Source: an uncultured Bacillota bacterium
GTDB lineage: Bacteria; Bacillota_I; Bacilli_A; RF39; UBA660
Assembly: GCA_945867665.1 (NCBI GenBank)
Contig: CAMBIR010000003.1
Span: forward strand, 18,757-82,756
Direction of reading: 5' to 3'
Length of the DNA stretch: 64,000 bases
Made by a program: the position numbers and the translations under genes. Below, piece by piece: positions 2,148-36,676 of this stretch (positions are counted from its first letter, which is position 1; each line of letters starts with the position of its first letter). Below the pieces are notes generated by a model. That model made no database searches and was not told where the DNA came from. It saw nothing but the letters and a program-made list of their open reading frames with translations.

Positions 2148-3281
2148 TCATTCTCCTTGCTCTATCTTTTCTACCTCTCGAAGAAAGAAATCATCAGTCA
2201 TTCCCGCAATAAAATCAATAACCATTCTCTTCTTTGAAGTATTTTCAAAGTATATTTCATCCTTACGATTTAAAAAATACACATAAATTAAACTATCCCT
2301 CTTTTGTTCTTCTAAATCAGATAAATACTGAAAATAAATTTTATTCATCCCAGCTTTATACCTTTCTTTATCTTCTAAAGAAATACTTTTAGCATAAATA
2401 AATTGATAATTAAAATTCTTCAAGCGAAGCAATGCTTGATAAACTTCATCACTCATTTTGATATATGGCTTCTGATAACTATTATCAATAATATCCGTAA
2501 CAATTGTATTAATAATCTCTCGGTTAGTACTACCTAATACCTTTGTAATATCATCAGGAATATCTTCTTCTTTAATATAACCAAGACGAATTGCGTCTTC
2601 AATATCCCTTCCTATATAACTAATAATATCACTAATTCTAACCACACATCCCTCCAAAGTCATCGGCCGACATTCCAATGTTTTTTTCAGATTATGATAA
2701 GCTTCTTCATATTCTTTTAAAAATTCCTTCTCATCTTTTTCTTGAGGAACATACTCATTAGATAAAATTTCTCCATTATGACACATAATTCCATCTAACA
2801 CCTGAATAGATAAATTTAAACCATGTCCTTTATTTTCAATATCCATATAATTTCTTACACTCTGAATATTATGGGCAAAATATTCCCCCAATTCCCTTCT
2901 AGAAATCTCATTTAATAAACTCTCCCCAACATGACCTAAAGGAGTATGCCCAATATCATGTCCAAGAGCAATTGCCTCAATCAAATCTGTATTCAAATTT
3001 AAAGCTCTACCTATCGTTCTAGCAATTTTACTAACAAATTGAACATGAACAATCCTCTTCGATACATGATCATTTTTAGAAAAAGAATAAACTTGTGTTT
3101 TATTTAAATACCTCGTATAACTCATTGCATAAATAATTCGGTCAACATCCCGAAAAAAAGGAGTCCGAATATCATCTTCTTCCATCACCAAACGAACTGC
3201 TTCATCACTTTTTGTAGCATAACAAGATAAATTATCATCAATACGGAAAAAATTTTTCTTTACTTCAAAAAAATACTTCAT
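2148..3281 (-). CDS. dgt: dGTP triphosphohydrolase-like HD-domain phosphohydrolase
   Basis: 377 aa with the HD motif 'LGHDIGHTPLGH' typical of Dgt-like dNTPases. Confidence 0.75.
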   Translation of the reverse strand: MKYFFEVKKNFFRIDDNLSCYATKSDEAVRLVMEEDDIRTPFFRDVDRIIYAMSYTRYLNKTQVYSFSKNDHVSKRIVHVQFVSKIARTIGRALNLNTDLIEAIALGHDIGHTPLGHVGESLLNEISRRELGEYFAHNIQSVRNYMDIENKGHGLNLSIQVLDGIMCHNGEILSNEYVPQEKDEKEFLKEYEEAYHNLKKTLECRPMTLEGCVVRISDIISYIGRDIEDAIRLGYIKEEDIPDDITKVLGSTNREIINTIVTDIIDNSYQKPYIKMSDEVYQALLRLKNFNYQFIYAKSISLEDKERYKAGMNKIYFQYLSDLEEQKRDSLIYVYFLNRKDEIYFENTSKKRMVIDFIAGMTDDFFLREVEKIEQGE

Positions 3282-3391: not shown

Positions 3392-4780
3392 TTACTTCGT
3401 ACTAACTTTCAAAGGACTTTCCTTTGTCCCCATTCCACTATATTTGAGCCCAGACTTCAGAACCACTATTGGGCGAAGGGAATTGCCGTTACTACCCGTG
3501 GCGAAACCTGAACTGTTATAGGAATACAGGATGCTGTTGGCATACGACCCCGAAGTGCCCAAGCCCCGTCCGCGCCACTTATAGTTAGTCGAAGAGGAAT
3601 AATAATAGTATCGTGATGCCATCCAATAATCAGAACTGCTACTCCCTGGTTTAGTGGCTACTCGTGTCCCTAAAACTGTATTAACTAAATCATAATCCGT
3701 AGTATATAATTCATCTCCTCCACCTTGACTCTCAACAGTACTACTTCCTGTTGAACTTGTCCATGGTGCTGGATTTGTAAATTTGGAAGTATCCGTAATA
3801 TATTCTGTCTGACCATTATACCCAAAATGCCTAGATGAAACAGTATAAGTACTATTTTCATATTGACTGGCAAGAACATTTAAATATCCAACAAAATTTT
3901 GATACCCTGTTTGTCCTTTAAAATAAACGTCTGTACTAGAGACATGTTCACTAATCATCTCTACTGTTCCATCATCATTAATACGAATTACTCGCCACAA
4001 ATTTAACTCTTTTGGATAAATCGTTTGACTAGATGTATATCCTGTCATTGTTGTATCCGTTGAATAAGAAGATTTGGTAGGCGTTAAAGAAACATAATCT
4101 CCTAGACTAATCATTCCACTAACATTCTCCGCTAAAGCATCAATCGCACATTGAACATCAGAACAATTAAGCCCTGTTTTCGAATTATCATAACTAAATC
4201 GACTAGCAATAACATCATTCGCCACCAATGCCCCATTATCAATACTATCAGTTGTACTATAAGCAGCAATCCCATCTATTTTTAATCTGGCACTAAAACT
4301 TTTATTGATTTCAGTATTTTGAACAGCCTCAGATATCCATACCCGAACATCAATATCTACACTTGTTTTGGGCAATAAAATAATATCACTTTTAATAATA
4401 TTATTACTACAATCACTAAGTTGTTTAGGATCTAGTTTCCCCACCTTTGTCATAATAAATTGATGATTGATTTCATCTGTAGCCGTTGTAGGTTCTAGTA
4501 TCACATTAAATTTATAAGCAACCGTTCCTGAATTTTTAACCGTTATTCGATAAGGAGTAATTGTAGGGATTCTTTGATTAGAAATTGGCCTAGATACATC
4601 TAAAGTAACATTACCCGCATCTTCTACAGTAACCACTAAACTTCCCAATTTATAAACATTAGCTTCCTGATCAACATCTGTAGAATTAAAAAGAGAATAG
4701 GTACTACCAATCATCAAAATAGATACTAATATAATAGAAATAACACTGGTAACAATTAATCTTTTCTTAGAATCCATCAC
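3392..4780 (-). CDS. DGR target protein 3, remote from the cassette; N-terminal signal/anchor and C-terminal variable domain
   Basis: 462 aa. The N-terminus 'KKRLIVTSVISIILVSILMIG' is hydrophobic. The C-terminal 230 aa are paralogous to ORFs 11915..12859 and 14939..15904. The 3' part (3471..3605) aligns to the TR at 13941..14075 with substitutions mostly at TR adenines. Confidence 0.8.
   Translation of the reverse strand: MMDSKKRLIVTSVISIILVSILMIGSTYSLFNSTDVDQEANVYKLGSLVVTVEDAGNVTLDVSRPISNQRIPTITPYRITVKNSGTVAYKFNVILEPTTATDEINHQFIMTKVGKLDPKQLSDCSNNIIKSDIILLPKTSVDIDVRVWISEAVQNTEINKSFSARLKIDGIAAYSTTDSIDNGALVANDVIASRFSYDNSKTGLNCSDVQCAIDALAENVSGMISLGDYVSLTPTKSSYSTDTTMTGYTSSQTIYPKELNLWRVIRINDDGTVEMISEHVSSTDVYFKGQTGYQNFVGYLNVLASQYENSTYTVSSRHFGYNGQTEYITDTSKFTNPAPWTSSTGSSTVESQGGGDELYTTDYDLVNTVLGTRVATKPGSSSSDYWMASRYYYYSSSTNYKWRGRGLGTSGSYANSILYSYNSSGFATGSNGNSLRPIVVLKSGLKYSGMGTKESPLKVSTK
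3471..3605 (-). other. DGR variable region VR3
   Basis: About 135 bp homologous to the TR. The pattern of substitutions differs from VR1 and VR2. The flanking IMH-like block 'gagcccagacttcagaaccactat' is shared with VR1 and VR2. Confidence 0.75.
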
Positions 4781-4787
4781 ACACCTC

Positions 4788-5507
4788 CTACTTACTAAAA
4801 TAATATAAACTTCCCATCAATATGCCCATTACCAAAATTAAAAGTAAAAATGTTTGAGCATCAATCATTCCTTCATTATTTTTTCTTACTAAAGTCTTTG
4901 GCTTTATTTGACTCACTTCTCTCTTTTGTCCTCTTTCCAATTGACTCACCACACGTTCAACTAAAACATTGAGTGGTTGATTTTCTAAATCAAGTTCCTT
5001 ATCTTGAAATAAAGTACTGATTTGTCTTTCAATCTCTAGATAAGAAACATTTACAAAAGAATTAGCCCCATCCTGTAAATAAGTTCTAGTTATTCCATCT
5101 TGACTCTCTGAAATCAAATTCGTTTTAAAATAATTTTCAAGAAAAACTTGTTCTTTTCGTTTCCGAATAATTTTTGAATCATTTGAAAAAGAAAAACTAC
5201 TAACCAATTCTTGACTTCTCTTCTCTTCTTCATCATTAAGTGGTACAAATTGAAGAGAAAGTTCCTTGATATTCTTAAGCCTCTTAATTGTATCTTTATA
5301 AGCCTTTAAATAAAAAGTTTTATAATTAGGATTATTCAAAATACTACTAGAAATAACTAAAGTTGCCTCTCCACTATCTTTTCTTAGAGAAACTTCAAAA
5401 TCAACCCCAGAAAAAAAACCACGATACAAAATAATATCCTCATCTTCTAGTATAATCTCCATCTTACCACTCCTCATTATCTTAATATAAGAGTACCATA
5501 AATACAA
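4788..5507 (-). CDS. Hypothetical protein with a C-terminal TM anchor
   Basis: 239 aa ORF with hydrophobic C-terminus 'FLLLILVMGILMGSLYYF'. It ends 7 bp upstream of target3 on the same strand. The true start may be the internal 'MEIILEDED'. Confidence 0.4.
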   Translation of the reverse strand: MYLWYSYIKIMRSGKMEIILEDEDIILYRGFFSGVDFEVSLRKDSGEATLVISSSILNNPNYKTFYLKAYKDTIKRLKNIKELSLQFVPLNDEEEKRSQELVSSFSFSNDSKIIRKRKEQVFLENYFKTNLISESQDGITRTYLQDGANSFVNVSYLEIERQISTLFQDKELDLENQPLNVLVERVVSQLERGQKREVSQIKPKTLVRKNNEGMIDAQTFLLLILVMGILMGSLYYFSK

Positions 5508-11508: not shown

Positions 11509-11880
11509 CTAATTAAAAGCAAGTTCTGTATCAATATCATAATCTGTATAAGCAATATATAAAAGAATAATTCCCGCTAATACAATAAATAAACTACTAA
11601 TAAAAGATAAATATATAGCTTCCTTCTTACCTTTACTATCACTTATTTTTATATTTTTTAATTCCTTTATACTATCAATAAAATAATAAGAATAAGTAAT
11701 CAAAGCACCACCAAAAATAATAATCATTAACTCTCGGTACCTCTTCTTACTCTCCTCATTCTGATAAATTAAATAATCCCTCTCAAAAACATTCGCAATA
11801 AAAGAAAGAAGAATAATAATGATTAATACTAACCAAATTACTTCTTCTATTTCTAACTTTTTCAATCTCTCTTCATCCAT
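11509..11880 (-). CDS. Small integral membrane protein, hypothetical
   Basis: 123 aa with three hydrophobic segments. Sits directly downstream of DGR target1. Confidence 0.4.
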   Translation of the reverse strand: MDEERLKKLEIEEVIWLVLIIIILLSFIANVFERDYLIYQNEESKKRYRELMIIIFGGALITYSYYFIDSIKELKNIKISDSKGKKEAIYLSFISSLFIVLAGIILLYIAYTDYDIDTELAFN

Positions 11881-11892
11881 AATAAAATATAT

Positions 11893-12530
11893 GAGATATC
11901 CTCCACTTCCTACTTTACTTTATCTCCATCGGATAGTCCTCTGTACCTACTCCCTCATATTGGAGCCCAGACTTCAGAACCACTATCGGGCGAAGAGAGC
12001 TGCTGCTACCGCCCGTGTTGAAATTCGAACTATAATAGCTATACAGGTTGTAGTTGCTAATTGACCCAGAAGCGAGCACCTTCCGTCCGCCCCAGCGATA
12101 GTCAGTCGAGGAGGAATAATTATAGTATCGTGATGCTATCCAATAAGAAGCACCACTACCCCCTGGTTTAGCGGCTACTCTTGTCCCTAAAACTGTATTG
12201 ATTAAATTATAATCTGTAGTGTATAAAGTATCTCCTCCACCTTGACTCTCAACAGTACTACTTCCAGTTGAACTTGTCCATGGTGCTGGATTTGTAAATT
12301 TGGAAGTATCGGTAATATATTCCGTTTGCCCATTATATCCAAAATATCGAGAACCTTTAGTATAAGCACTATTTTCATACTGACTTGCAAGAACATTTAA
12401 GTATCCAACTAGGTTTTGATACCCTGTTTGTCCTCTAAAATAAACCGCTACACTAGAGACATGTTCACTAATCATCTCTACTGTTCCATCATCATTTAAT
12501 TTAATCACTCGCCATAAATTTAATTCTTGT
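11893..12530. repeat. Direct repeat copy A, about 640 bp and 100% identical to 14917..15554 (3' portion of target gene including VR and IMH)
   Basis: Read base by base, with identity confirmed at several blocks and divergence beginning upstream of about 12530. Confidence 0.75.
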
Positions 12531-12859
12531 GGATTAATCGTTTGCGTACTAGTATATCCAGTTTTAGAAGCATCCGTTGTATAGCTAGACTTGGTTGGTG
12601 TCATCTTGACATAGTCTCCTAAAGCAAGAGTATTTTTTTTCTTTAAACAAACATATCCATCTGGACATGACTTACCATATAATTCATCCAAAGCATCTTG
12701 AACATTAGTTGAACTAAGACCACTTTTACTATTATCATAAGTTAAATCTACTCCATTACCAACGTATGTCGTTGCTGCATATACTCCCGTTACCGATAAG
12801 AATATTCCAATTACTAAACCAACTAGTATCTTATAATTATAACTTTTCTTTTTCTTCAT
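11915..12859 (-). CDS. DGR target protein 1, secreted or anchored, with C-terminal variable domain
   Basis: 314 aa. Signal peptide 'MKKKKSYNYKILVGLVIGIFLSVTGVYA'. The C-terminal 230 aa are identical to ORF 14939..15904. The 3' VR (11988..12122) matches the TR except mainly at TR-adenine positions. Confidence 0.85.
   Translation of the reverse strand: MKKKKSYNYKILVGLVIGIFLSVTGVYAATTYVGNGVDLTYDNSKSGLSSTNVQDALDELYGKSCPDGYVCLKKKNTLALGDYVKMTPTKSSYTTDASKTGYTSTQTINPQELNLWRVIKLNDDGTVEMISEHVSSVAVYFRGQTGYQNLVGYLNVLASQYENSAYTKGSRYFGYNGQTEYITDTSKFTNPAPWTSSTGSSTVESQGGGDTLYTTDYNLINTVLGTRVAAKPGGSGASYWIASRYYNYSSSTDYRWGGRKVLASGSISNYNLYSYYSSNFNTGGSSSSLRPIVVLKSGLQYEGVGTEDYPMEIK
11988..12122 (-). other. DGR variable region VR1
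   Basis: Aligns with the TR at 13941..14075. On the plus strand TR 'gagagTTgTTgTTaTTgTTcgtg' corresponds to VR 'gagagCTgCTgCTaCCgCCcgtg', so the substitutions fall on coding-strand adenines. Residues encoded there: TR N/N/N/N/N give VR D/R/G/K/L and so on. Confidence 0.8.
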
Positions 12860-13805
12860 TTCTAATCATTCCTTTATTTAGATTTTTATAATTAATATAA
12901 CTTGCTAAATAACTATTTAATTTTATCTTTCCAATTTCATATAAATACTTTTTATATTTTAATTTTCTTCTCTTGTCTCTATATTTAGAATTTCTATTAT
13001 CTTTATCTCTTCCTAGAAAAATAATATTATTGGTATTCTTATAAATTCTAGTTTTATTATTTAACTCTAATCTTTCTTTTCTTAAAAATTCTTTTATCTT
13101 ATCTAAACAATACTTTAAATATTGTTTATCTTGATGAAACAAAATAAAATCATCTTGATATCTTACATAATATTTTATCTTTAACTCTTCTTTAATATAA
13201 TGATCTAAATCATTTAAATAAAATATTCCTAATATTTGACTACTCATAAATCCTATACTAAGTGTAGTATCACTATCTAATATTTTATCTATTATCATTA
13301 AAGCATCTTTATCTTTTATTTTTCTTTTCAATTTATTCTTTAATACTCTAATATCAATACTAGCAAAATAAGAATGAATATCACATTTTAAAAGATAATA
13401 AGTACCATATTTTCTCTCCATCATATTACGATACTGATAATATAATTTTAGAGCATAAGATGTTCCTTTATTTGTTCTAGAAGCACAATTTGCATCAATT
13501 AAACAAGGAATTAAAGCATCATATAAAATATATCGACTCACCAAATGATTCACTAATTTATCATACATACTTTGACTAACAATTCTTCTTTTCTTTGGAT
13601 CGTATATGTAAAAAACATGAAACTTTCCTACTTCATAAGTTTTATTTTTTAAATCATGATATACCCGACTAATATAAATTGCTTTAAAATTCTTAAATTG
13701 TTGTACTCTATTCTTATTTTTTGTATTTCTACATATCTCATCAAAACATCTCTCTATATTTTCAAATTTATATATATTTTGATATAAATTATTTACTCTT
13801 TTCAT
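12837..13805 (-). CDS. DGR reverse transcriptase
   Basis: 322 aa. RT motifs 'IGFMSSQILGIFYLNDLDHY' (DGR-type [IVL]GxxxSQ in place of QGxxxSP) and 'YVRYQDDFILF' (YxDD box). The size is typical for DGR RTs. It overlaps the start of target1 by 23 nt. Confidence 0.9.
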   Translation of the reverse strand: MKRVNNLYQNIYKFENIERCFDEICRNTKNKNRVQQFKNFKAIYISRVYHDLKNKTYEVGKFHVFYIYDPKKRRIVSQSMYDKLVNHLVSRYILYDALIPCLIDANCASRTNKGTSYALKLYYQYRNMMERKYGTYYLLKCDIHSYFASIDIRVLKNKLKRKIKDKDALMIIDKILDSDTTLSIGFMSSQILGIFYLNDLDHYIKEELKIKYYVRYQDDFILFHQDKQYLKYCLDKIKEFLRKERLELNNKTRIYKNTNNIIFLGRDKDNRNSKYRDKRRKLKYKKYLYEIGKIKLNSYLASYINYKNLNKGMIRNEEKEKL

Positions 13806-13929
13806 ATATCCCCTTTCATTTTCATTACTAACAGATATATTTTTTATATTGTTTATAGAATAATCTATTGGACTTAGTCTATTTCTTCATTATCTCTAAT
13901 ATAAGTCTTTCTTATATCACCTCAGTTTG
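13806..13929 (-). ncRNA. DGR TR–RT spacer, presumed structured part of the template RNA
   Basis: A 124-nt non-coding gap between the TR 3' end and the RT start codon. In characterised DGRs this spacer is part of the RNA that primes cDNA synthesis. The assignment here is inferred from position alone. Confidence 0.4.
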
Positions 13930-14095
13930 AAGAAGTTCCTGGGCGAAGAGAGTTGTTGTTATTGTTCGTGTTGAAACTTGAACTATTATAGTTATACAGG
14001 TTGTTGTTGCTAGTCGACCCAGAAGTGTTCACATTCCGTCCGTTCCAGTTATAGTTAGTCGAAGAGGAATAATCATAACAACATCTCTTTCCAAA
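13930..14095 (-). repeat. DGR template repeat (TR)
   Basis: Non-coding copy of the target 3' region lying between avd and the RT. Its residual reading frame is Asn-rich, 'STNYNWNGRNVNTSGSTSNNNLYNYNSSSFNTNNNNNSLRP', with 13 or more AAC codons at positions that vary in VR1, VR2 and VR3. The 3'-end block 'cttcgcccagg' (IMH*) differs from the VR-side IMH. Confidence 0.85.
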
Positions 14096-14099
14096 CCAA

Positions 14100-14444
14100 C
14101 TAAGCCCGAGATGACTTTCGCCATCCAATAACATACTTTAATAAATAATCCAAATTCTCCCCAAATTTTAAATATCTTTTGGCATTAATAATGTGTTTAT
14201 CGTAACAAACATTAACCAAATAATCTAAATATTTAATATAAGAAATAATTTTATCTTGAATATCGATTCTTTTATTGATATCAAATGTTGTATTTGCTTC
14301 ATAAGCAATCTTTAACATTTGATAAGAAGTAAACATAATTTCTCTTTTTATTTCTATTTCTTTATGAGGAAAATTTGTTAAATACTGATCAAAACTATCA
14401 ATTAATCTCTTAATCAATTCTGTTATATAAAATTTATCTTTCAT
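14100..14444 (-). CDS. avd: DGR accessory variability determinant (Avd; four-helix-bundle, 23S rRNA IVS protein family)
   Basis: 114 aa. 'LIDSFDQYLTNFPHKEIEIKREIMFTSYQMLKIAYEAN … YLDYLVNVCYDK' fits the Avd consensus (FPK.E.…R.…). It lies immediately upstream of the TR. Confidence 0.7.
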   Translation of the reverse strand: MKDKFYITELIKRLIDSFDQYLTNFPHKEIEIKREIMFTSYQMLKIAYEANTTFDINKRIDIQDKIISYIKYLDYLVNVCYDKHIINAKRYLKFGENLDYLLKYVIGWRKSSRA

Positions 14445-14883
14445 ATAATAACTTCTCTACTTCTTCAATTTTATCATCATGCTTTAAAAGATAGACCTTA
14501 ATTCTATCAATTCTATTTAATTTATCTAAATAATCATTTGCTTTAGAAGAAACCTCTTTATACTTATTTTTCTTTTTATAATTCATCTTATCCATCTCTT
14601 CATAATTATGATTCTTATCAATCGAAATATAATTAATATTTCTACTCTCTAAATTTGAAATAACTCTATTATAAGAAACCAAAGGAAAACCACAATTCTT
14701 ATCTCCACTAGATAATATCTTAATTTTATATTGAAATAAATAAGAAATGATATTGGCATCATCATTATAACATTCATAAAAAGTACCAATTTTTAATAAT
14801 ACTACATATTCTGGAAATAATTCTTTTAAATTATTTGCCATATTTACTACTGCCATATAAACCTTCTTTCTTTTTTTAACCAA
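14434..14883 (-). CDS. MutS domain-I-like (mismatch-recognition domain) small protein; putative DGR accessory factor
   Basis: 149 aa. 'FPEYVVLLKIGTFYECYNDDANI…KNCGFPLVSYNRVISNLESRNINYISI' aligns to MutS domain I ('PILLFYRMGDFYELFYDDA…[23 protein letters not shown]') and keeps the Phe-x-Glu mismatch-contact motif ('FYE'). It overlaps the avd start by 11 nt. Confidence 0.6.
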   Translation of the reverse strand: MVKKRKKVYMAVVNMANNLKELFPEYVVLLKIGTFYECYNDDANIISYLFQYKIKILSSGDKNCGFPLVSYNRVISNLESRNINYISIDKNHNYEEMDKMNYKKKNKYKEVSSKANDYLDKLNRIDRIKVYLLKHDDKIEEVEKLLYER

Positions 14884-14916
14884 AGCCCATCTCAGGAACG
14901 ACCTTAGGCCGTTCTT

Positions 14917-15554
14917 GAGATATCCTCCACTTCCTACTTTACTTTATCTCCATCGGATAGTCCTCTGTACCTACTCCCTCATATTGGAGCCCAGACTTCA
15001 GAACCACTATCGGGCGAAGAGAGCTGCTGCTACCGCCCGTGTTGAAATTCGAACTATAATAGCTATACAGGTTGTAGTTGCTAATTGACCCAGAAGCGAG
15101 CACCTTCCGTCCGCCCCAGCGATAGTCAGTCGAGGAGGAATAATTATAGTATCGTGATGCTATCCAATAAGAAGCACCACTACCCCCTGGTTTAGCGGCT
15201 ACTCTTGTCCCTAAAACTGTATTGATTAAATTATAATCTGTAGTGTATAAAGTATCTCCTCCACCTTGACTCTCAACAGTACTACTTCCAGTTGAACTTG
15301 TCCATGGTGCTGGATTTGTAAATTTGGAAGTATCGGTAATATATTCCGTTTGCCCATTATATCCAAAATATCGAGAACCTTTAGTATAAGCACTATTTTC
15401 ATACTGACTTGCAAGAACATTTAAGTATCCAACTAGGTTTTGATACCCTGTTTGTCCTCTAAAATAAACCGCTACACTAGAGACATGTTCACTAATCATC
15501 TCTACTGTTCCATCATCATTTAATTTAATCACTCGCCATAAATTTAATTCTTGT
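14917..15554. repeat. Direct repeat copy B (identical to 11893..12530)
   Basis: See copy A. Confidence 0.75.
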
Positions 15555-15904
15555 GGTTTAATTGTTTGCGTACTCGTATATCCTGTTTTAGAAGTATCTG
15601 TTGTATAGCTAGACTTGGTAGGTGTCATCTTAACATAGTCTCCTAAAGCAAGGGTACTTTTCTTTTGTAAACAAACATAACCATCAGGGCAACTAGTACC
15701 ATCTCCATATACCTTCTTATATTTATCTGAAAGTTCATCAACTGCTCCTTGTACATCAGCACTAGATAAGTTACTATTTTCATTATCATAAAAAACATCT
15801 TCTGCTCTATATTTATTTACTGCCCATACACTAATGATAGGAATTAATATTCCTATCATTAAACCAATGAATAATTTATAATTCTTATTTTTTAATATTC
15901 GCAT
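14939..15904 (-). CDS. DGR target protein 2, secreted or anchored, upstream of the cassette
   Basis: 321 aa. N-terminal 'MRILKNKNYKLFIGLMIGILIPIISVWA'. The C-terminal domain and VR are identical to target1. Confidence 0.85.
   Translation of the reverse strand: MRILKNKNYKLFIGLMIGILIPIISVWAVNKYRAEDVFYDNENSNLSSADVQGAVDELSDKYKKVYGDGTSCPDGYVCLQKKSTLALGDYVKMTPTKSSYTTDTSKTGYTSTQTIKPQELNLWRVIKLNDDGTVEMISEHVSSVAVYFRGQTGYQNLVGYLNVLASQYENSAYTKGSRYFGYNGQTEYITDTSKFTNPAPWTSSTGSSTVESQGGGDTLYTTDYNLINTVLGTRVAAKPGGSGASYWIASRYYNYSSSTDYRWGGRKVLASGSISNYNLYSYYSSNFNTGGSSSSLRPIVVLKSGLQYEGVGTEDYPMEIK
15012..15146 (-). other. DGR variable region VR2 (identical to VR1)
   Basis: Offset by 3024 bp from VR1 and the same sequence throughout. 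Confidence 0.8.
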
Positions 15905-19954: not shown

Positions 19955-20698
19955 CTACTTACTCTGTTTTCTTTTCCTTCTTTTAACCCCAATCTCTAAA
20001 TTATCCTCTTTTCTAAACTCATCACAAGAATAAACTTCCACTTTTTTACAATGAATCTTCCCCATAACTTTTGAAGATAATTTACTAGAACCTAATAAAA
20101 GATTTTCTGTCTCTATCTTACTTCCTTTAGAAGAAGAAACAAATTTCAAGTCACTATATTTAAAAGATAAATTCTTACTAATAATTTTAGCCTCAACTAG
20201 ATTCCTTATCCCATTAATTTCAATATTATCTCCATCTAAACAAAGGGAATAATTATTCCAATTAACCTCATCACACACTTTTATAGAAATATCTCGCGCC
20301 CTAGCGATAATGGATAATCCCATATCACAAGATTTATCCATCACTACATTAAACTTCTCCATTGCTTCCCCACTAATTTGCTTAGAAGATAAATAATCTA
20401 AAAATCTAGGAGAAATCAAAGAAATATCCCCTCCCATAAACTGAACATATCTTCCCAAAAAAGTACAATTCTTTAAGATAAGTTTTGTATCTTTAGGACA
20501 ATGTAACTTAACATCATGATAAAATATCGCATTTTCAATAACTAAAACATCAATCTCTTCCCTGACTCGATAATCATCATACAAATCATATACATACCTT
20601 TCAAAAATAGTATTCAATATTTTATGTTTATTAGGAAAACGAAACTTTCTCCAACACATACTTTCATTTATCTGATAACCTACCAAAATATTTTCCAT
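19955..20698 (-). CDS. Hypothetical protein
   Basis: 247 aa with no recognisable motifs. Confidence 0.4.
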   Translation of the reverse strand: MENILVGYQINESMCWRKFRFPNKHKILNTIFERYVYDLYDDYRVREEIDVLVIENAIFYHDVKLHCPKDTKLILKNCTFLGRYVQFMGGDISLISPRFLDYLSSKQISGEAMEKFNVVMDKSCDMGLSIIARARDISIKVCDEVNWNNYSLCLDGDNIEINGIRNLVEAKIISKNLSFKYSDLKFVSSSKGSKIETENLLLGSSKLSSKVMGKIHCKKVEVYSCDEFRKEDNLEIGVKRRKRKQSK

Positions 20699-20720
20699 AA
20701 ACCATATCCTCCTTTAGTCC

Positions 20721-21815
20721 TTATTTTTTCTTTATCATTGAACGAATATTTTCTCGACCAAGACAATAAAAATCTGTAGTAAATCTCCCCATTAAGTACT
20801 TTTCTACCTCTAAATTTTCAAAATGATGAAAGCAAGAATACTTCTTAAAAATCTCACTCAATGAATAGAGCATATTTAAAGAAAAATCATTCCTTTTTTT
20901 ACAAACAAGAATTAAATTATTCAATCGATATAATTCTCTATCAAGTAAAATCAATTTTTGCCTAAACGCATAATTTTCATAAATAGACACAATAATATGA
21001 TAATTTAATTTTAAGTACTCTTCTTCATCATAATGCACATCCATTTTTATCCGATTGCTTACTCTATCTAAATAAAAAAGTTTAGAACAAACTGGGGAAA
21101 CATAACAAACATTAGCATATCTCTTACTAAGACTTTTCAAAGAAGCATTAATAATTTCTGAAAAATGAAGGCCTAAAACATCAGGAACACCACACAAATA
21201 TATCTGTGTCGTTGAGCCATTAATTCGATTCATCATCTGAAAATAATCCAAAATAGAACTTAAACGATTAAAATCATCTCTTTTTTCAAAAAGAAAAGTT
21301 GTAACCATTTTTTTCTTATCAAAAAATGTCTTAGTAAGCGAATTTGTACATCCTTGATAAACAATTACATTCGCAAGTCCTTCTGCACTTTCTAAAACTA
21401 AATCACGAATTCCCTTATCAAAATAAGAGGAAGAATAAGGAGGCATATTCTCCCTATTATCTAACTGATACAAAGAAAAGCAATCAAAAATATTCGTATA
21501 ATCTTTAAAATTCATCTCTAAGATTGAAGACTCCTTAACATTATTTACAAGAAAAGAATAAATGTCCACCTCGCTATTTCCCCTAACACAAGCAAAATGA
21601 TACCTCTCTAAAGCAATAGATGCCTCATCCATAACATCACTTAAAGACAAATTTCTATATAATAGTAACTGATTTCCCCTTACAAGAGATAATCCAAGAG
21701 CAAGAGAATTACCCAAACTAGTAAGCCTAAAATGAGTAATTCCTAATTCCATAAATTTATCCGCTAATTTTTTATTCATCAAAATTAAATCTTTTCTTTT
21801 CATAAAAACCCCCAT
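20721..21815 (-). CDS. Hypothetical protein
   Basis: 364 aa with no recognisable motifs. Confidence 0.4.
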   Translation of the reverse strand: MGVFMKRKDLILMNKKLADKFMELGITHFRLTSLGNSLALGLSLVRGNQLLLYRNLSLSDVMDEASIALERYHFACVRGNSEVDIYSFLVNNVKESSILEMNFKDYTNIFDCFSLYQLDNRENMPPYSSSYFDKGIRDLVLESAEGLANVIVYQGCTNSLTKTFFDKKKMVTTFLFEKRDDFNRLSSILDYFQMMNRINGSTTQIYLCGVPDVLGLHFSEIINASLKSLSKRYANVCYVSPVCSKLFYLDRVSNRIKMDVHYDEEEYLKLNYHIIVSIYENYAFRQKLILLDRELYRLNNLILVCKKRNDFSLNMLYSLSEIFKKYSCFHHFENLEVEKYLMGRFTTDFYCLGRENIRSMIKKK

Positions 21816-26897: not shown

Positions 26898-28184
26898 ATG
26901 AAAAATAACTTTATTAAATCAACAATTATTTTAATCATTGGTGGATTCATTAGTAAAATCTTAAGCATGATAATAAAAATTATCTTAACTAGAACAATTT
27001 CTACTAAAGGAATTGGCATCTATTCCCTAATTCTTCCTACCTTCAATCTCTTTATCACACTCTGCTCCCTAGGACTTCCTATCGCCATTTCTAAACAAAT
27101 TAGTGAGCAAAGAAAAAAAGCAAAAGAAATCATTCTCCCCATTATTCCTCTAACTCTTCTCTTTGATGTATTTTTAATAATAATCTTATTTATTCTCTCT
27201 CCCCTACTAAGCAATTTTCTTTTAAAAAATAAAATGACTTACTACCCCTTAATCGCAATCGGTCTAACGCTTCCCTTCATCAGTATTTCTTCTATCCTAA
27301 AAGGCTATTTCTTTGGCAAAGAAAAAATGTTTCCAACAACCTTTTCTAACATCACCGAACAACTCATTCGTCTTATTTTGACTCTAACCCTAATCAAATA
27401 TCTAATGAAGTACTCTCTTAGCATTGCTATCACTGGCGTTGTCTTAATCAATATCCTAAGTGAAGGGATCTCCATTATTACTCTCCTTCTCTTTATTCCA
27501 AAACACGAAAAAATATCATTTTCTGATTTTAAGTTAGACCAAAGTCAAATCAAAGACTTACTAGATATCAGTCTTCCTACAATAGGAAGTAGATTAATTG
27601 GTTCGATTACCTATTTCCTAGAACCGATTCTTTTAACTTACGCTCTAACAAACTCAGGATATTCCATAAATGATATTACCATTGAATATGGAATCATTAA
27701 TGGCTATGTCTATCCCCTTTTACTCCTTCCTTCTTTCTTTACCATGGCAGTATCCAGTGCTCTCTTACCCGTTGTTTCTAATGCCTACTCTAAACGAAAT
27801 TATTCCTACACAAGATATAAAATCAAACAAGCATTAGTAATCTCCCTTATTATCGGCATTCCCTGTACCCTTCTTTTCATGAGCGTGCCAAAATATTTTC
27901 TAAACACCATCTACAATACAAACGAAGGACTTACTTACATTAAAATAATTGCCCCTTTCTTCCTTTTACATTACATTCAAGGACCATTAACAGCCAGTAT
28001 GCAAGCAATGAACAAAGCAAAAGAAGCAATGCTAGGAACACTATACGGATCTATCATAAGATGTATCTTATTACTCACCCTCTCTTTTCTTCATATTGGA
28101 CTATGGGGACTATTAATTGCTACAATCACAAATATTATCTTTATTACCATCCATCACTTTTACTATGTCTTTCATTCAACTTAA
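26898..28184 (+). CDS. MOP-superfamily oligosaccharide flippase (polysaccharide biosynthesis, SpoVB-like)
   Basis: 428 aa multi-TM protein. The N-terminal 'IIGGFISKILSMIIKIILTR' is typical of the Wzx/SpoVB family. Confidence 0.6.
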   Translation: MKNNFIKSTIILIIGGFISKILSMIIKIILTRTISTKGIGIYSLILPTFNLFITLCSLGLPIAISKQISEQRKKAKEIILPIIPLTLLFDVFLIIILFILSPLLSNFLLKNKMTYYPLIAIGLTLPFISISSILKGYFFGKEKMFPTTFSNITEQLIRLILTLTLIKYLMKYSLSIAITGVVLINILSEGISIITLLLFIPKHEKISFSDFKLDQSQIKDLLDISLPTIGSRLIGSITYFLEPILLTYALTNSGYSINDITIEYGIINGYVYPLLLLPSFFTMAVSSALLPVVSNAYSKRNYSYTRYKIKQALVISLIIGIPCTLLFMSVPKYFLNTIYNTNEGLTYIKIIAPFFLLHYIQGPLTASMQAMNKAKEAMLGTLYGSIIRCILLLTLSFLHIGLWGLLIATITNIIFITIHHFYYVFHST

Positions 28185-28236: not shown

Positions 28237-31200
28237 TTAAACATTAATTTTTTCTAATCTTAACCCAACTTCAAATTCATTAATTTTCTCTAACGTACTA
28301 TCGTCACTTACCCTCTCCATCTTTAAAGCAAGTGTTTCATCACAAATAAACTTAATATAATCACTTATCTTCGCACTATATAAATCACTAGACGAATAAT
28401 AAATACAAATCCTATCTGCAATATCAAAGCCCATACTCTTTCTTAGATTCTGAATCTTAGAAATTGTCTCTCTAGCAAGACCTTCATTAATCAAATCATC
28501 GGTTAATTCTAAATCAAGAATAACAATCAAATTCCCATTTACACAGACATTAAATCCTTCCTTAGATTCAATTCTTTTCTCAATCAATTCTTCAGTTACC
28601 TGATATTCAGTCCCATTTAGTGAAATAGTTAAATTCCCATGCGCCAACTTCTCTAAATCTTCTTTAGTAATAGTAGTTAAATAATCACTGAATGCTTTCA
28701 TATCCTTACCAAATACCTTACCCGCTACTCTGAAATTAGGTTTATAAGTAATATTCATATATAAGTTAACATCATCAACATATAATACTTCTTTAACATT
28801 CAACTCTTCTTTAATTAATACTTCAAGTCCGAAAAGTTTTTCTTTAAGAGAAGAAGATAACATTACACTCTTAATTGGTTGTCTAACTTTTATCTTAGAC
28901 TCTTCCCTTATATTTCTTCCCATCGTAATTAAGTCTCTAACCAAATCCATTTTATATTCTAGCCCTTCATTAATTAATTCACTAGAGCAAATAGGAAAAT
29001 CAGCTAAATGAACGGATTTTTTCTTTGTTAATTTTGTATAGATTTCTTCTGTTAAATAAGGAATAATCGGAGCACATAAACGGCATAATCCTTCCATTAC
29101 TTCATAAGTAGTCATATAAACACTTCTTTTACTAGTATTCATATCGCTTCCCCAAAAACGATTTCGATTTCTTCTAATATACCAATTCGATAAATCTTCA
29201 GAAACAAAATTAGTAATCTCTCTAACGACCAAATTTAAATCATATGCCTCATAAAATTCTCTTACCTTTTTAATTAGATGATTGTATTTACTTAAAAGCC
29301 ACTTATCAATCTCTTCTCTATCCTCATACTTAACCTTGCAGTCTTCAATATTAATCTTGTCAATATTTGCATACGTTTGAAAGAATGTATAAGTATTCCT
29401 AAATGGATTAAAGAACTTACTATGAACTTCTCTTACTCCAGCCTCAGAAAACTTTAAAGGCGTCCAAACAGGAGATGTGTATAACATATACCACCTGATA
29501 TTATCTGCCCCATACTTCTCCATCATCTCTACAGGATCAACAATATTTCCAACAGACTTACTCATCTTTTTACCAAATTCATCCAACATCATATCATTAA
29601 CAACAACGTTTTTAAATGAACTTTCTCCCGAAATAATCGTAGAAATAACAAGTAAAACATAGAACCAACCTCTAGTTTGATCAAGTCCTTCCGCAATAAA
29701 ATCAGCAGGAAATTGACTTTTAAATAATTCTTGATTTTCAAAAGGATAATGAAATTGGGCATAAGGCATCGAACCAGAATCAAACCAAACATCTAAAACA
29801 TCTTTAACACGAGTCATTTCTTTACCACAAGAACATTTTAAATGAATTTGATCAACATAAGGACGATGTAGTTCCAACTCTCTTACATTAACATCCTCAA
29901 CCACATTTTCTTGCAACTCATCTAGAGAACCAATAACCTTTCTTTTACCACAAGAACATTCCCAAACAGGAAGTGGACAACCCCAATAACGATTTCTAGA
30001 AATTCCCCAATCAACTATATTCTCAAGCCAATTTCCAAAACGTTTTTCTCCAACATAAGCGGGATACCAATGAATTTTTTTATTTGCCTGGATAATTTTA
30101 TCTTTATATTCAGTAGTTTTAATATACCAAGCAGGTTTAGGATAGCTAATTAAAGGACTCTTACATCTCCAACAATGTGGATAATCATGCTCTATTTTAA
30201 TTTTTTTAAATAACTTATCATTTTCTTTTAACCATTTAATAATATCAATTTCAAGCTCAGGATCCGTAACAAGGCGACCCTCCCATGGACCAGTCGTATA
30301 TCTTCCATCAAGTCCAACTGGATTCACAAAACCAATCCCATTTTGAGAACAAACACGGTTATCATCAGCACCAAACGCAGGAGCAATATGAACAATACCT
30401 GTACCATCACTATCCGTTACATAATGATCCGCAATAACTTCATGACATTTCCCTTCAACATGAACAAAAGGCATTAATTGTTCATATTTTATTCCAACCA
30501 AATCACTACCTTTAAAAGTATCAATTACTTCATAATCTTCCCCAAGTACTCGTTCAGCAAGACTTTCTGCGACAATAAATTGATATCCCTTAGAACTAGC
30601 CTTAATATAAGTCATATCAGGATTAACACAAATCGCAACATTCGCCATCAAAGTCCAAGGCGTTGTCGTCCAAGCTAAGAAATATTCATCAGCATCTACT
30701 CGTTTTAAAGGAACAATAACGGTATTCACACTAGTTTTAGTATACCCTTGTGATACTTCAAATTGAGATAATTCTGTACCACATCTAGGACAATACCATA
30801 GCACTTTATTCCCGTGATATAAAAGCCCCTTCTCATCCATTTGTTTAATAATCCACCACTCTGACTCAATATAATCATTAGAACAAGTAATATAAGGATT
30901 TTTACAATCAATAAATTGCCCCATCATATCAGTAATATGATTTACTTCATTAATATTTGTCGCCGTTGCCTTATTACACTCACGACAAAAAGCATCTACA
31001 CCAAATTTTTCAATATCCGCTTTACCAGTAAATCCCAACTTTTTTTCAACATTTACTTCAATAGGAAGGCCATGCGTATCAAGACCAATCTTTCTTAATA
31101 CTCTATATCCATTCATAACCTTATACTTACAAAAAGAATCTTTAATCGTCTTCGCAAAAACATGATGAATACCAGGTTTAGCATTTGCATAAATAGGACC

Positions 31201-31353
31201 ATCATAAAAAACAAAATCCTTCTTACCTTCACGATTTTTTATGGTTTCATTTAAAATATCTTCTTTTTTCCAAGTATCTAGTATACTTTTTTCAACTTCC
31301 TTAACCTCTCTTTTATCTAAGCTCTCGTACATTTCAATCATCCTTCTTTCCAA
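28237..31353 (-). CDS. ileS: Isoleucine--tRNA ligase
   Basis: 1038 aa. 'HHVF' HIGH-like motif and 'KMSKS' ('KMSKSVGN') are present. Confidence 0.95.
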   Translation of the reverse strand: MERRMIEMYESLDKREVKEVEKSILDTWKKEDILNETIKNREGKKDFVFYDGPIYANAKPGIHHVFAKTIKDSFCKYKVMNGYRVLRKIGLDTHGLPIEVNVEKKLGFTGKADIEKFGVDAFCRECNKATATNINEVNHITDMMGQFIDCKNPYITCSNDYIESEWWIIKQMDEKGLLYHGNKVLWYCPRCGTELSQFEVSQGYTKTSVNTVIVPLKRVDADEYFLAWTTTPWTLMANVAICVNPDMTYIKASSKGYQFIVAESLAERVLGEDYEVIDTFKGSDLVGIKYEQLMPFVHVEGKCHEVIADHYVTDSDGTGIVHIAPAFGADDNRVCSQNGIGFVNPVGLDGRYTTGPWEGRLVTDPELEIDIIKWLKENDKLFKKIKIEHDYPHCWRCKSPLISYPKPAWYIKTTEYKDKIIQANKKIHWYPAYVGEKRFGNWLENIVDWGISRNRYWGCPLPVWECSCGKRKVIGSLDELQENVVEDVNVRELELHRPYVDQIHLKCSCGKEMTRVKDVLDVWFDSGSMPYAQFHYPFENQELFKSQFPADFIAEGLDQTRGWFYVLLVISTIISGESSFKNVVVNDMMLDEFGKKMSKSVGNIVDPVEMMEKYGADNIRWYMLYTSPVWTPLKFSEAGVREVHSKFFNPFRNTYTFFQTYANIDKINIEDCKVKYEDREEIDKWLLSKYNHLIKKVREFYEAYDLNLVVREITNFVSEDLSNWYIRRNRNRFWGSDMNTSKRSVYMTTYEVMEGLCRLCAPIIPYLTEEIYTKLTKKKSVHLADFPICSSELINEGLEYKMDLVRDLITMGRNIREESKIKVRQPIKSVMLSSSLKEKLFGLEVLIKEELNVKEVLYVDDVNLYMNITYKPNFRVAGKVFGKDMKAFSDYLTTITKEDLEKLAHGNLTISLNGTEYQVTEELIEKRIESKEGFNVCVNGNLIVILDLELTDDLINEGLARETISKIQNLRKSMGFDIADRICIYYSSSDLYSAKISDYIKFICDETLALKMERVSDDSTLEKINEFEVGLRLEKINV

Positions 31354-31359
31354 AATAAA

Positions 31360-31620
31360 AACACAAAAACTTCTAAATTTAAGGACGAGATAACACGCGG
31401 TACCACCTTAATTCACAAAATTTTTGTGCACTTCATTCACATAACGGGATCTAACCCGGACACTTTCTACTTAAGTTCAAAAGTTCACATTCCAGAGTGA
31501 TTCTTATTTAACATTTATTATCTATCTCTCACCATTAATAGACTCTCTTTTAAATAAACCCTTTAAATAACGTCTCCTTCAATTGCTTTAACAAATTTAA
31601 ACTAATTATAAAAAAAATAG
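31360..31620 (-). promoter_or_regulatory. T-box riboswitch leader of ileS
   Basis: The minus-strand read contains the T-box consensus 'AATTAAGGTGGTACCGCG' (31383..31400 on the plus strand as its reverse complement) about 30 nt before the ileS RBS. Confidence 0.7.
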
Positions 31621-36600: not shown

Positions 36601-36676
36601 GTAACATCCAACAAAAAGTAAAAAAACATAAAAATTTTCTTCTTATTTCTTTTCTCATCACTTTTTCACTCCTCAA
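33668..36676 (-). CDS. Large cell-surface protein with Cna-B/SpaA-type repeat domains and C-terminal anchor
   Basis: 1002 aa. It has an N-terminal signal peptide. Repeats of the type '…TGTDELPGATLALY…' and '…KEIPGAKLRICD…' match the Cna-B-like 'LxGAxFxL' pattern. The C-terminus 'NDVKTGDKYIITIIVITLSCLIIGVGMYYYSNKNKFNNNGKIRKRK' has a motif, a TM segment and a positive tail. Confidence 0.6.
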   Translation of the reverse strand: MRSEKVMRKEIRRKFLCFFTFCWMLLAFVPSVYAAKLTRGNASQLYNGSDTGKKLDGKKAYCTTRSWNVPSAGATYEIVTGTNNYNRDNLVAGQIIRIGKKKYSGNTEYENIQEALTCYFKGKASVNKYNINNSFCSKSAIKSLISTAKNYVGEYQFNEGSKTSSLPKLDIISTSQVISNVSHQTGGGYTYRSAMDGNGNITIQGMESTNYGGNRSGYYSSTVPKYTLNITSSASGSVAYLCLNNNDSQCYASGATNLVNGTYSLKVVNGGNTGGTVSVSIVGENSSNYPSANIFECTKGCGKHPQVLQTEVSSVPVTRQVVANQNFTYSAEGKHSALIEKVDETGKALKNATLRLYIADANGKELKELCRTNSNGNDTSCTVNELTEDDNYKNGNKLCYEEVVSPSGYKKIASDCETISLGTNNTLYYEYHKSSNSDKWEKTPVENNGKQLFDNYTKFAKSDKVSLKSVFDVGNGKKVYTDAEKVYEYKYTVSDKEKIFYTTSNIPKESTKIYKHGNKTVDDDGTTKYEFEDPIYTIEIPKDMDATVDKSGIEKNLVKVDVYEKDGKYIVLSSTEDEDGIPVYSEKVPQEVVVKSKEYTSQVKVCYNTNDGVAADSDKYCSEDYYMTQVATANGNFHITVLNTLNSIKISKKAITGTDELPGATLALYTSENGKCTNNLVSKKNSSALVFSYRAYSPVTYVEDEKNTTEDSKPNTSNSTTEDSSDDNSSDTVVDNNYNYLDGLKWVSSDEPVTISGLAAGTYCLSETIPAAGYKKTTTTTKFTINDKGEIVDNIEGEHIGDSKNGILSNVTLVVRNELNKVTISKTDIVTSKEIPGAKLRICDAVKGDDGKYSAVLSTGETGDEVNDLSGCDTPILSDGSDASWESKDTPHEISGLPSGTYALVEITAPNGYEVAETIFFKMNDNGVLTDVDGNPLSDNKIVMHDKPINDVKTGDKYIITIIVITLSCLIIGVGMYYYSNKNKFNNNGKIRKRKIYLNKLN

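Follow-up and report, generated by a model that had tools for sequence, protein, structure and literature searches.

Evidence that an uncultured, low-GC Bacilli bacterium of the gut carries a structurally intact, Msl-containing diversity-generating retroelement on its chromosome

Organisation of the locus

The window (the entire 64,000-nucleotide stretch analysed here) contains a cassette of the order target2–msl–avd–TR–spacer–RT–target1, and all of its genes and the features described below lie on the minus strand. An earlier note on this DNA had proposed that gene order and read it as a complete diversity-generating retroelement (DGR); each of its open reading frames was recovered in place and on that strand. 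The reverse transcriptase (RT; 12837..13805) is 322 aa in length, and the 3' end of its gene overlaps the start of target1. It carries the two motifs that the note had named, IGFMSSQ (residues 184–190) and YQDD (residues 216–219); judged by the motif-4 signature [I/L/V]GxxxSQ and the catalytic YxDD, it is predicted to belong to the DGR clade. Among 51 related RTs, IGxxxSQ occurs in 45 and YQDD in 12. An end-to-end alignment joins the protein to bRT, the RT of the Bordetella phage DGR (PDB 8ub7_A; E=9e-21, 77.8 bits), with IGFMSSQ opposite bRT I181–Q187 and YQDD opposite the YMDD of D215/D216; these residue numbers agree with those given for bRT in the cryo-EM paper on the Bordetella DGR. It also matches phage family PHROG 1423 (E=4e-74).

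Two accessory genes accompany the RT. The product of avd (14100..14444; 114 aa) matches PHROG 3206, 'Avd protein of DGR', over its full length (E=4e-12) and NCBIfam DivGenRetAVD, likewise over its full length (E=2e-5), but at 24.7 bits against a cut-off of 80; searches of Pfam and of PDB sequences returned no match. The placement of avd beside Msl and the RT is conserved in relatives, and this synteny together with the PHROG match supports the Avd-like assignment made previously. Msl, a stand-alone MutS-domain-I protein (14434..14883), comprises 149 aa from a TTG start or 140 aa from the ATG at 14856, the latter being the gene callers' choice in the related contig L048, and its gene overlaps avd by 11 nt. 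Its match to Pfam MutS_I (34 bits; cut-off 20.6) bears out the MutS-domain-I-like frame of the earlier note. Residues 18–49 align with residues 22–53 of Taq MutS, GDFYEC included; Phe35 and Glu37 of the Msl motif GTFYEC fall opposite Taq MutS positions 39 and 41, which we take to be the mismatch-contacting Phe-x-Glu of MutS. Each of the 34 Msl sequences whose alignment extends across the motif retains the Phe; the Glu is retained in the closest relatives only. Msl thus shares domain I and its Phe-x-Glu motif with the MutS repair protein but, at 140–149 aa, has no connector, core, clamp or ATPase domain, and therefore cannot signal repair. Assignment as the MutS mismatch-repair ATPase was rejected, the match being confined to domain I and the NCBIfam MutS score being 19.9 bits against a cut-off of 480.

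Adenine-biased divergence between TR and variable regions

TR spans 137 nt (13941..14077, read 14077->13941), contains 47 adenines and 16 Asn codons, and is identical in both public records of the contig; the Asn-rich repeat that had been placed at about 13930..14095 is thereby confirmed and its bounds refined. TR is a non-coding copy, beside the RT, of variable regions (VRs) found in the 3' ends of the target genes. It aligns without gaps, at 82% identity, with VR1 (11988..12124, read 12124->11988) and with VR2 (15012..15148, read 15148->15012), which are identical to one another as written in the window record; the other record has an alternative allele. The 25 mismatches of the window allele divide into 19 at the 47 TR adenines and six at the 90 other bases, a bias far beyond chance (Fisher p=2.9e-6), so that an unbiased TR/VR homology, named in the earlier note as an argument against a DGR, was not what we found. 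For the allele of the other record, 18 of 20 mismatches are at TR adenines and two are not, one of the two at the 5' edge. A third region, VR3 (3471..3607), is 77% identical to TR over 137 nt (blastn E=3e-26), with 31 mismatches, 20 at TR adenines and 11 elsewhere (p=1.7e-4), and in the independent strain L050 the corresponding counts are 19/23 and 21/24.

All three VRs are in frame, 24 codons ahead of the stop, in three paralogous open reading frames. They share a 25-nt 3' flank, (G/A)ATAGTGGTTCTGAAGTCTGGGCTC (11963..11987, 14987–15011 and 3446–3470), which differs from the flank of TR and also codes for a conserved PIVVLKSGL; by analogy, this flank is a candidate IMH. Just past the target2 stop, approximately 110 nt after VR2, lies an 8-bp GC-rich hairpin, GAACGGCC-TAA-GGTCGTTC (14896..14914). 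The hairpin is absent after target1 in this strain, whereas in L050 each of the two targets is followed by one; that it helps to recognise targets would be speculative. Between TR and the RT gene is a 135-nt spacer region, Sp (13806..13940), with conserved hairpins. Sp is conserved across four species-level relatives, and four of its base pairs show compensatory changes among just these four sequences; on analogy with the Bordetella phage DGR, it could act in priming.

Target proteins

[quoted passage not shown] The earlier note had placed targets with a cognate VR on both sides of the cassette, which holds true, but it missed the identity (100%) of VR1 and VR2 and also a third, remote variable-protein gene outside the span it described. 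This gene, target3 (3392..4780), encodes 461 aa from the ATG at 4777, comprising an N-terminal TM/signal helix and approximately 190 extra residues followed by a CTLD-type domain as in target1 and target2. Across 71 target homologues the mean entropy is 1.70 bits within the VR and 0.47 bits outside it, with peaks at the TR Asn codons; in target3 orthologues approximately 290 residues are nearly invariant and VR3 alone is hypervariable.

Modelling of the targets, which the note had recommended, yielded a C-type-lectin-like fold, and the targets are accordingly predicted to be CTLDs with the VR at the C-terminus. Their similarity to Lcl-C and to phage DUF6273 proteins (Foldseek E=4e-4 for the latter) is structural alone. 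No Pfam family was matched at E<=0.1 by any target, nor any NCBIfam family by target3, and PDB sequence and profile searches returned nothing; the DUF1566, FGE-sulfatase and DUF6273 sequence families were rejected as assignments, no family HMM matching any target. The closest structural likenesses are CTLDs of the Lcl C-terminal/DUF1566 kind and the N-terminal domain of the Thomasclavelia ramosa IgA peptidase (PDB 8q4e, 9qa6), and with neither do the targets share a sequence-level family. Unlike the targets described here, neither group has known DGR diversification.

Sister strains

Sister strains hold an intact cassette in which VR1 and VR2 differ, a cassette with a frameshifted RT, or no cassette. 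Of the 27 sites that distinguish VR1 from VR2 in L050, 24 are TR adenines. Three assemblies (L057–59) have a frameshifted RT, and the cassette is deleted in L049, L051–56 and L060. Apparent frameshifts are also seen in L010 and L001, and half of the TR/VR mismatches in L010 are at non-adenine sites. The flanks of the cassette encode CinA, NAD kinase, RsmE, MurC, TrmD and RimM, housekeeping genes that are syntenic across strains, and in L010, L048 and L050 this site is likewise occupied. The chromosomal setting beside cinA-nadK, free of phage structural genes, was thus correctly recognised in the earlier note. Its description of the host as an endospore former is unsupported: the sole match, to a SpoVB-like MOP flippase, reaches 309 bits where the cut-off is 372.

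Alternative explanations

Taken together, the adenine-biased TR/VR mismatches, the kinship of the RT with that of the Bordetella phage DGR, the lectin-like targets and the syntenic housekeeping flanks uphold the reading as a chromosomal DGR, and we put at roughly 85% the probability that the locus is a genuine, structurally intact, Msl-containing DGR resident in the chromosome of a gut bacterium from an uncultured low-GC lineage of Bacilli. That the RT instead belongs to another retroelement or defence system (a group II intron, a retron or an Abi/DRT system) and lies between duplicated genes by chance is exceedingly improbable: it has weak NCBIfam matches to group II RT (66 bits), retron St85 RT (49 bits) and Drt3a (44 bits), but the respective cut-offs are 300, 235 and 200, and membership of the group II intron and retron RTs was rejected on these scores and on an Rfam search that found only a T-box and tRNAs in the window, and no intron or retron RNA. 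Its best solved relative, aligned over the full length, is the DGR RT; the kinship with group II intron or retron RTs that the earlier note had weighed against its own reading was not seen in these scores, a group II intron RT scoring 19.9 bits where the DGR RT scored 77.8. The locus also has Avd, the SQ motif specific to DGRs and a TR whose differences from three VRs are adenine-specific. That the DGR travels on a prophage or another mobile element, and is not a resident chromosomal locus, is also very unlikely. The RT and Avd match phage protein families, the GC content of the cassette is 20–23% against 27–29% in the flanks, and the cassette is present or absent depending on the strain; however, no phage structural, integrase or recombinase genes occur in the flanks examined, which hold housekeeping genes only, and the phage DNA match is limited to 109 nt of the RT. 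Species that are more distant also have the order target–msl–avd–TR–RT–target, and L010 has it at this very site, which argues that presence of the cassette is ancestral and its absence a derived deletion.

Two further questions concern the recent history of the resident DGR. The first arises from a 641-nt exact repeat (copy 1, 11892..12532; copy 2, 14916–15556) that covers the 3' two-thirds of target1 and target2, VR included. A second public record exists for this 124,891-nt contig, and it departs from the window record at 28 positions, each change appearing in both repeat copies; 18 of these are at TR adenines and three are outside the VR. Because the differences are mirrored in this way, three of them beyond the VR, as a graph-collapsed or multi-mapped and polished repeat would produce, the identity of VR1 and VR2 is probably an assembly artefact hiding two alleles rather than biology. 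It is somewhat unlikely, though less so than the other alternatives, that the identity is real and reflects recent gene conversion between the paralogues, or a single homing and conversion event that was passed on to both; in that case the two records would stem from co-existing strains, one each, and not from two paralogue alleles. Conversion does occur, given that the paralogues have 3' ends that are mosaic from strain to strain (the tail of target3 orthologues is either '...KESPLKVSTK' or '...EDYPMEISTS'), and the duplication is genuine for the 5' part of the repeat at the least, since the Logan contig L047 breaks at the repeat boundary, 30 nt into the repeat. Against this, the two copies in L050 are only ~95% identical upstream and their VRs differ. 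The other question is whether the DGR is intact in structure but an inactive relic, its strain diversity historical and its VRs drifting by ordinary mutation, which we consider improbable. The six non-adenine mismatches of the window allele and the 11 of VR3 would vanish upon full-length homing from the present TR, and the last rewriting of some targets may therefore not be recent; the lineage has repeatedly lost the system through the RT frameshifts, the deletions and the decay in L010, and strains without a working RT carry identical target proteins on 6–9 contigs. Yet the four cassette open reading frames are intact here, TR and Sp are intact and conserved, the allele of the other record is nearly free of non-adenine mismatches, and the two VR alleles of the sample differ at 24 sites, 18 of them TR adenines. 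In L050, moreover, the TR is only 2/137 nt from that of the window, yet two VRs have diversified independently. The two alleles, and the hypervariation confined to the VRs among strains, are indirect signs of mutagenic retrohoming by a DGR that may still be active.

Relationship to known DGRs

Msl-containing DGRs have been described as 'Architecture D', the Legionella DGR included (Wu et al. 2018, PMC5758913), and the Bacteroides Bfr, Bth and Bun DGRs are also of this kind (bioRxiv 10.1101/2024.11.15.621889). The present DGR belongs to this established type, having a small MutS-like gene in a cassette with avd and no HRDC match in any cassette open reading frame by Pfam search; it is thus less special than the earlier note had scored it. 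As in those systems, the MutS-like gene, avd, TR and RT are on one strand, the VR lies at the C-terminus of targets that are surface proteins, and the locus is chromosomal in a gut bacterium. It differs in its host, an uncultured low-GC Bacilli lineage, in the number of its paralogous targets, three, of which two enclose the cassette and the third is 8 kb away, in targets without a Pfam family where those of Bacteroides are type V pilus tip proteins, and in an RT with YQDD in place of the commoner YMDD or YLDD. Relative to the mechanistic prototype, the BPP-1 DGR (mtd-avd-TR-brt), the RT can be aligned end to end (identity ~25%, estimated by eye from the alignment) and shares IGxxxSQ and YxDD. 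Both likewise have an Avd homologue, a spacer of ~135–140 nt that follows the TR and precedes the RT, TR-to-VR differences that are adenine-specific, and a target of C-type-lectin fold whose VR is at the C-terminus. The BPP-1 system is phage-borne, whereas the present one is chromosomal, has an extra Msl gene and several targets, and has no IMH or cruciform element recognisable by sequence.

Proposed mechanism and role of Msl

By analogy with the Bordetella phage DGR, the msl–avd–TR–Sp–RT genes would be transcribed from the minus strand, and the RT and Avd would bind the TR-Sp RNA to give a cis-primed cDNA of the 137-nt TR, with misincorporation opposite its 47 adenines. Up to three paralogous genes (target1, target2 and the distant target3) would then have the homologous VR at their 3' end replaced by this cDNA, such that mainly Asn codons are randomised, on the face with which a C-type-lectin-like domain, either secreted or anchored in the membrane, binds its ligand. 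Msl, most plausibly, would bind the mismatch-dense cDNA:VR heteroduplex and aid its escape from host mismatch repair. Host MutS repair otherwise suppresses retrohoming 5–10 fold. Because Msl keeps the mismatch-stacking Phe of MutS domain I without any of the signalling domains, it could conceivably serve as a mismatch-binding decoy that coats the adenine-mutagenised heteroduplex and shields it from host MutS, a suggestion that we offer tentatively and consider doubtful. If it were true, this species would be a natural system for testing the decoy idea and for measuring the cost and benefit of hypermutation, offering three lectin-fold targets and sister strains in which the cassette is intact, RT-frameshifted or deleted at one chromosomal site.

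Organization and genomic context of the cassette

A genuine and complete diversity-generating retroelement (DGR) occupies this chromosomal locus. It is of the Msl type, which carries a stand-alone MutS-domain-I protein (Msl), and all DGR hallmarks that sequence can decide were found here, beside a candidate homing hairpin and a putative RNA structure. Its open reading frames, taken from the six-frame ORF list of the window, all lie on the reverse strand: target2 (14939–15904, 321 aa), msl (14434–14883, 149 aa from a TTG start, or 140 aa if translation begins at the ATG at 14856, as gene callers chose in another record), avd (14100–14444, 114 aa), the reverse transcriptase RT (12837–13805, 322 aa), and target1 (11915–12859, 314 aa), whose start overlaps the end of the RT gene. 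Repeat finding and ungapped comparison placed the template repeat (TR) on the same strand at 14077→13941; it spans 137 nt, with 47 adenines and 16 Asn codons. The variable regions VR1 of target1 (12124→11988) and VR2 of target2 (15148→15012), also on the reverse strand, are each 82% identical to the TR. Their 25 mismatches, nearly all at codon positions 1 and 2, comprise 19 at the 47 TR adenines and 6 at the remaining 90 bases (Fisher p = 2.9e-6), bearing out the adenine-biased homology expected in the earlier note. Retrohoming activity at the locus is putative. GC content is 30.7% for the window, 20–23% for the cassette genes, and 37% for the targets. A 70-aa Asn-rich ORF (13922–14134) runs across the TR in the target reading frame and is most likely read-through of the TR rather than a gene.

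The flanking genes encode a YkuD/Big_2 protein, an HTH protein, an HMA protein, NAD kinase, CinA, an Rce1-like protease, a metallophosphatase, RsmE, MurC, TrmD, RimM, RlmB, Map, and a dGTPase. No phage genes were found in the flanks examined; the DGR is therefore chromosomal, in the housekeeping setting originally described. The only phage DNA match covers 109 nt of the RT gene, to RTs of crAss-like phages. The accompanying description of the host as an endospore former is unsupported: the sole sporulation-named match, a SpoVB-like MOP-family flippase (26898–28184), scores 309 bits against a cut-off of 372 and is no evidence of sporulation. Elsewhere in the window, a T-box leader (31378–31591, 103 bits) lies upstream of a 1038-aa ORF (28237–31353) that is presumably an aminoacyl-tRNA synthetase, and the ORFs at 33668–36676, 37619–38656, 19955–21815, and 4788–5507 (up to 1002 aa) matched no NCBIfam or Pfam family.

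Reverse transcriptase, Avd and Msl

The RT matches Pfam RVT_1, and among solved structures 8ub7_A comes closest to it (E = 9e-21, RT residues 2–302 of 322 aligned). Residue numbers in 8ub7_A (I181, Q187, D215, and D216) agree with those named for the Bordetella phage DGR RT in the cryo-EM paper, and the IGFMSSQ and YQDD motifs of the window RT align precisely onto the I181/Q187 and D215/D216 positions. A group II intron RT reached only 19.9 bits, and the NCBIfam group II, retron, and DRT models all scored far under their cut-offs, so that the initial assignment to DGR RTs rather than to those of group II introns or retrons stands. In PHROGs the protein matches a phage RT family (E = 4e-74). 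A search of public contigs for its encoding sequence located it on one 1.7-kb Logan contig only.

The 114-aa ORF matches the PHROGs family "Avd protein of DGR" over its full length (E = 4e-12); the NCBIfam Avd model likewise covers it fully, yet below cut-off. The 149-aa Msl ORF clears the Pfam MutS_I threshold, and both proteins are thus as first proposed. Msl aligns to residues 22–53 of Taq MutS, including GDFYEC, so that its Phe35 and Glu37 pair with positions 39 and 41 of the Taq protein, the mismatch-contacting Phe-x-Glu. Among 34 aligned sequences (the window protein and 33 homologues encoded beside related RTs), the Phe is retained in every sequence that covers the motif, and the Glu in the closest relatives only. 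A hypothetical mismatch-shielding role for Msl is plausible, because deletion of host mutS in Bacteroides, where Msl-type DGRs also occur, raises DGR retrohoming 5–10-fold (bioRxiv 10.1101/2024.11.15.621889). Five related loci (L003, L005, L007, L008, and L009) have, besides the avd-adjacent Msl, another MutS-domain-I paralogue close to the RT that is more divergent.

Target proteins and a third variable region

When the entire window was searched with the TR by blastn, a further full-length match appeared at 3607→3471 (E = 3e-26). It forms VR3, in frame at the C-terminus of target3 (3392–4780, reverse strand), a gene 8 kb from the cassette. The target3 protein has approximately 190 extra N-terminal residues followed by the domain common to target1 and target2. 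VR3 differs from the TR at 31 positions, 20 of them adenines (p = 1.7e-4) and 11 elsewhere. The targets recognized at the outset on both sides of the cassette therefore hold, and this third one had been missed. Orthologues of target3 are near-invariant over approximately 290 residues and hypervariable in VR3 only. Immediately downstream lies a dGTP triphosphohydrolase-family gene (2148–3281) with weaker, sub-threshold matches to anti-phage dGTPase models.

The targets found no relative in Pfam, NCBIfam, or PDB sequence and profile searches, and Foldseek against the PDB with the target model gave nothing significant. From 71 close homologues AF2 gave a model too poor to use (pLDDT 46); with divergent homologues, found via the target of the more distant relative L002, pLDDT rose to 88, and above 95 for residues 70–314. 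This model supports the lectin-type fold predicted earlier, with the VR (residues 246–290) as its C-terminal strands. Public data contain more than 800 members of the target family; in 71 of them entropy averages 1.70 bits within the VR versus 0.47 outside, with peaks on the TR Asn codons. Read directly from the sequence, the N-terminus consists of a basic stretch and a hydrophobic helix, and the protein is therefore probably exported or membrane-anchored. The window's own target1 and target3 proteins had no record in the public-contig search.

Identity of VR1 and VR2

VR1 and VR2 are identical and lie within a 641-nt exact repeat (11892–12532 and 14916–15556). A second public record of the window's contig, ENA contig NODE_54_length_124891 (reached via the target homologue P0003), runs colinear with the window for 10,945 nt. 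Exactly 56 positions differ, made up of 28 sites that recur in each target copy: 24 lie in the VR, one immediately 3' of it, and three upstream. The TR is unchanged between the two records. The second VR allele departs from the TR at 20 sites, of which 18 are adenines, and lacks five of the six non-adenine mismatches of the window VR; 18 of the 24 differences between the alleles fall at TR adenines. Drift of the TR was rejected as the source of the non-adenine mismatches, since the TR states at those sites are shared with the TR of the species-level relative L010 and match the alternative VR allele. Two contigs of 124,891 nt are listed with an identical target3, a gene of unique sequence, and a Logan contig stops 30 nt inside the 641-nt repeat, as a branch in the assembly graph would produce.

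The most economical explanation is a collapse, during assembly or polishing, of the near-identical ends of two paralogues, after which each record shows one of two real alleles in both copies; these alleles could be VR1 and VR2, or could come from two co-existing strains. Genuine gene conversion would also make the two VRs identical, and paralogue tails are indeed mosaic among strains: in the alignment of target3 orthologues, the last 15 residues alternate between KESPLKVSTK and EDYPMEISTS, the latter typical of target1 and target2, a sequence pattern that indicates conversion among the target paralogues. As the cause of the VR1/VR2 identity, we nevertheless consider conversion rather unlikely. 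With collapse preferred, the identical flanking VRs of the window record should not be trusted.

Conservation, decay and loss in related strains

The independent sister strain L050 carries the same cassette, its TR differing from that of the window at 2 nt. Comparison of its VR1 with its VR2 gives 27 differing sites, including 24 TR adenines; in this lineage, therefore, each flanking target is a true recipient that has diversified independently of the other. Against its own TR, 19 of 23 and 21 of 24 VR mismatches are adenine-specific. The order target–msl–avd–TR–RT–target recurs in L010, L001, and L002, more distant MAGs labelled uncultured Bacilli, in L010 at the same Rce1...cinA–nadK site, and the msl–avd–RT trio extends to RTs of approximately 42% identity. 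The closest species-level relatives show apparent frameshifts, L010 in RT (about 6330) and Msl (about 5100–5200), and L001 in Msl (near 5035) and Avd (near 5480), which may reflect either genuine decay or errors in the MAGs; about half of the L010 TR/VR mismatches are at non-adenine sites.

Three assemblies from three samples (L057–59) share one fixed RT frameshift directly after YQDDF, and seven contigs encode their target protein in identical form. In L049, L051–56, and L060, at or near this site, the cassette has been lost cleanly and target2 and target1 are adjacent, approximately 70 nt apart. As the cassette is already present in more distant species, its absence is a derived deletion and does not mark a vacant insertion site. 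A mobile msl–avd–TR–RT module was rejected as the basis of presence and absence, since more distant species carry the cassette between two targets, and L010 at the same site; by-eye comparison of the junction sequences revealed no repeats or target-site duplications at the cassette boundaries. The target1 VR of L051–56 differs by 1 nt between two strain groups and shows 16–17 non-adenine differences to the window TR, and the exact target proteins of these strains were found again on 6–9 contigs. Such a "frozen VR" pattern in cassette-less and RT-dead strains is suggestive only, as the recurring identical VRs could also reflect clonal strains shared between hosts. The target2 VR is still unlike between two cassette-less strain groups.

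Spacer, flanking signals and proposed mechanism

The 135-nt spacer (Sp) between TR and RT is strongly conserved in relatives with 71–86% RT identity. Aligned over the four closest loci (a 13-locus set was unusable because the layout differs in distant loci), it folds into candidate hairpins with four compensatory pairs, which in only four sequences is suggestive. The whole TR–Sp RNA and VR-flank folds were no more stable than shuffles (z = −0.9), a promoter and terminator scan stayed at chance level, and an exact-pattern scan of metagenome and viral contigs gave no match for the VR 3' flank. Compared with L050 (5942–6067), the window (11880–11915) is missing approximately 90 nt 3' of target1, including a GC hairpin GAACGGCC-TAA-GGTCGTTC; this hairpin occurs after target2 in the window strain. 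Loss of the segment downstream of target1 could affect homing into VR1.

By homology and layout, the mechanism is most likely standard mutagenic retrohoming, in which an RNA with TR and Sp would cis-prime cDNA synthesis. In the Bordetella phage DGR, an RNA comprising the avd 3' end, the TR, and a 140-nt Sp, close in length to the Sp here, wraps bRT-Avd and does so (cryo-EM paper). Msl-type DGRs account for 16 of 372 catalogued DGRs, that of Legionella among them (Wu 2018, PMC5758913). The window cassette resembles those of Legionella and Bacteroides in carrying a small MutS-like gene.

DGRs are very common in gut microbiomes and are, to our knowledge, the only prokaryotic system for targeted protein hypermutation. 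One more DGR is by itself no news, and the Msl type is already described; this one is a clean, compact example from a lineage of uncultured Bacilli, and its three paralogous targets, of predicted lectin fold, belong to no sequence family. Its value lies somewhat more in two other respects. The locus is a concrete warning that metagenome assembly and MAG polishing collapse DGR targets, with two public records of one contig giving different VRs, each duplicated into both paralogues. The sister strains form a natural series at one site, from intact through RT-dead to cassette-deleted, that could reveal the fate of variable proteins once diversification stops.
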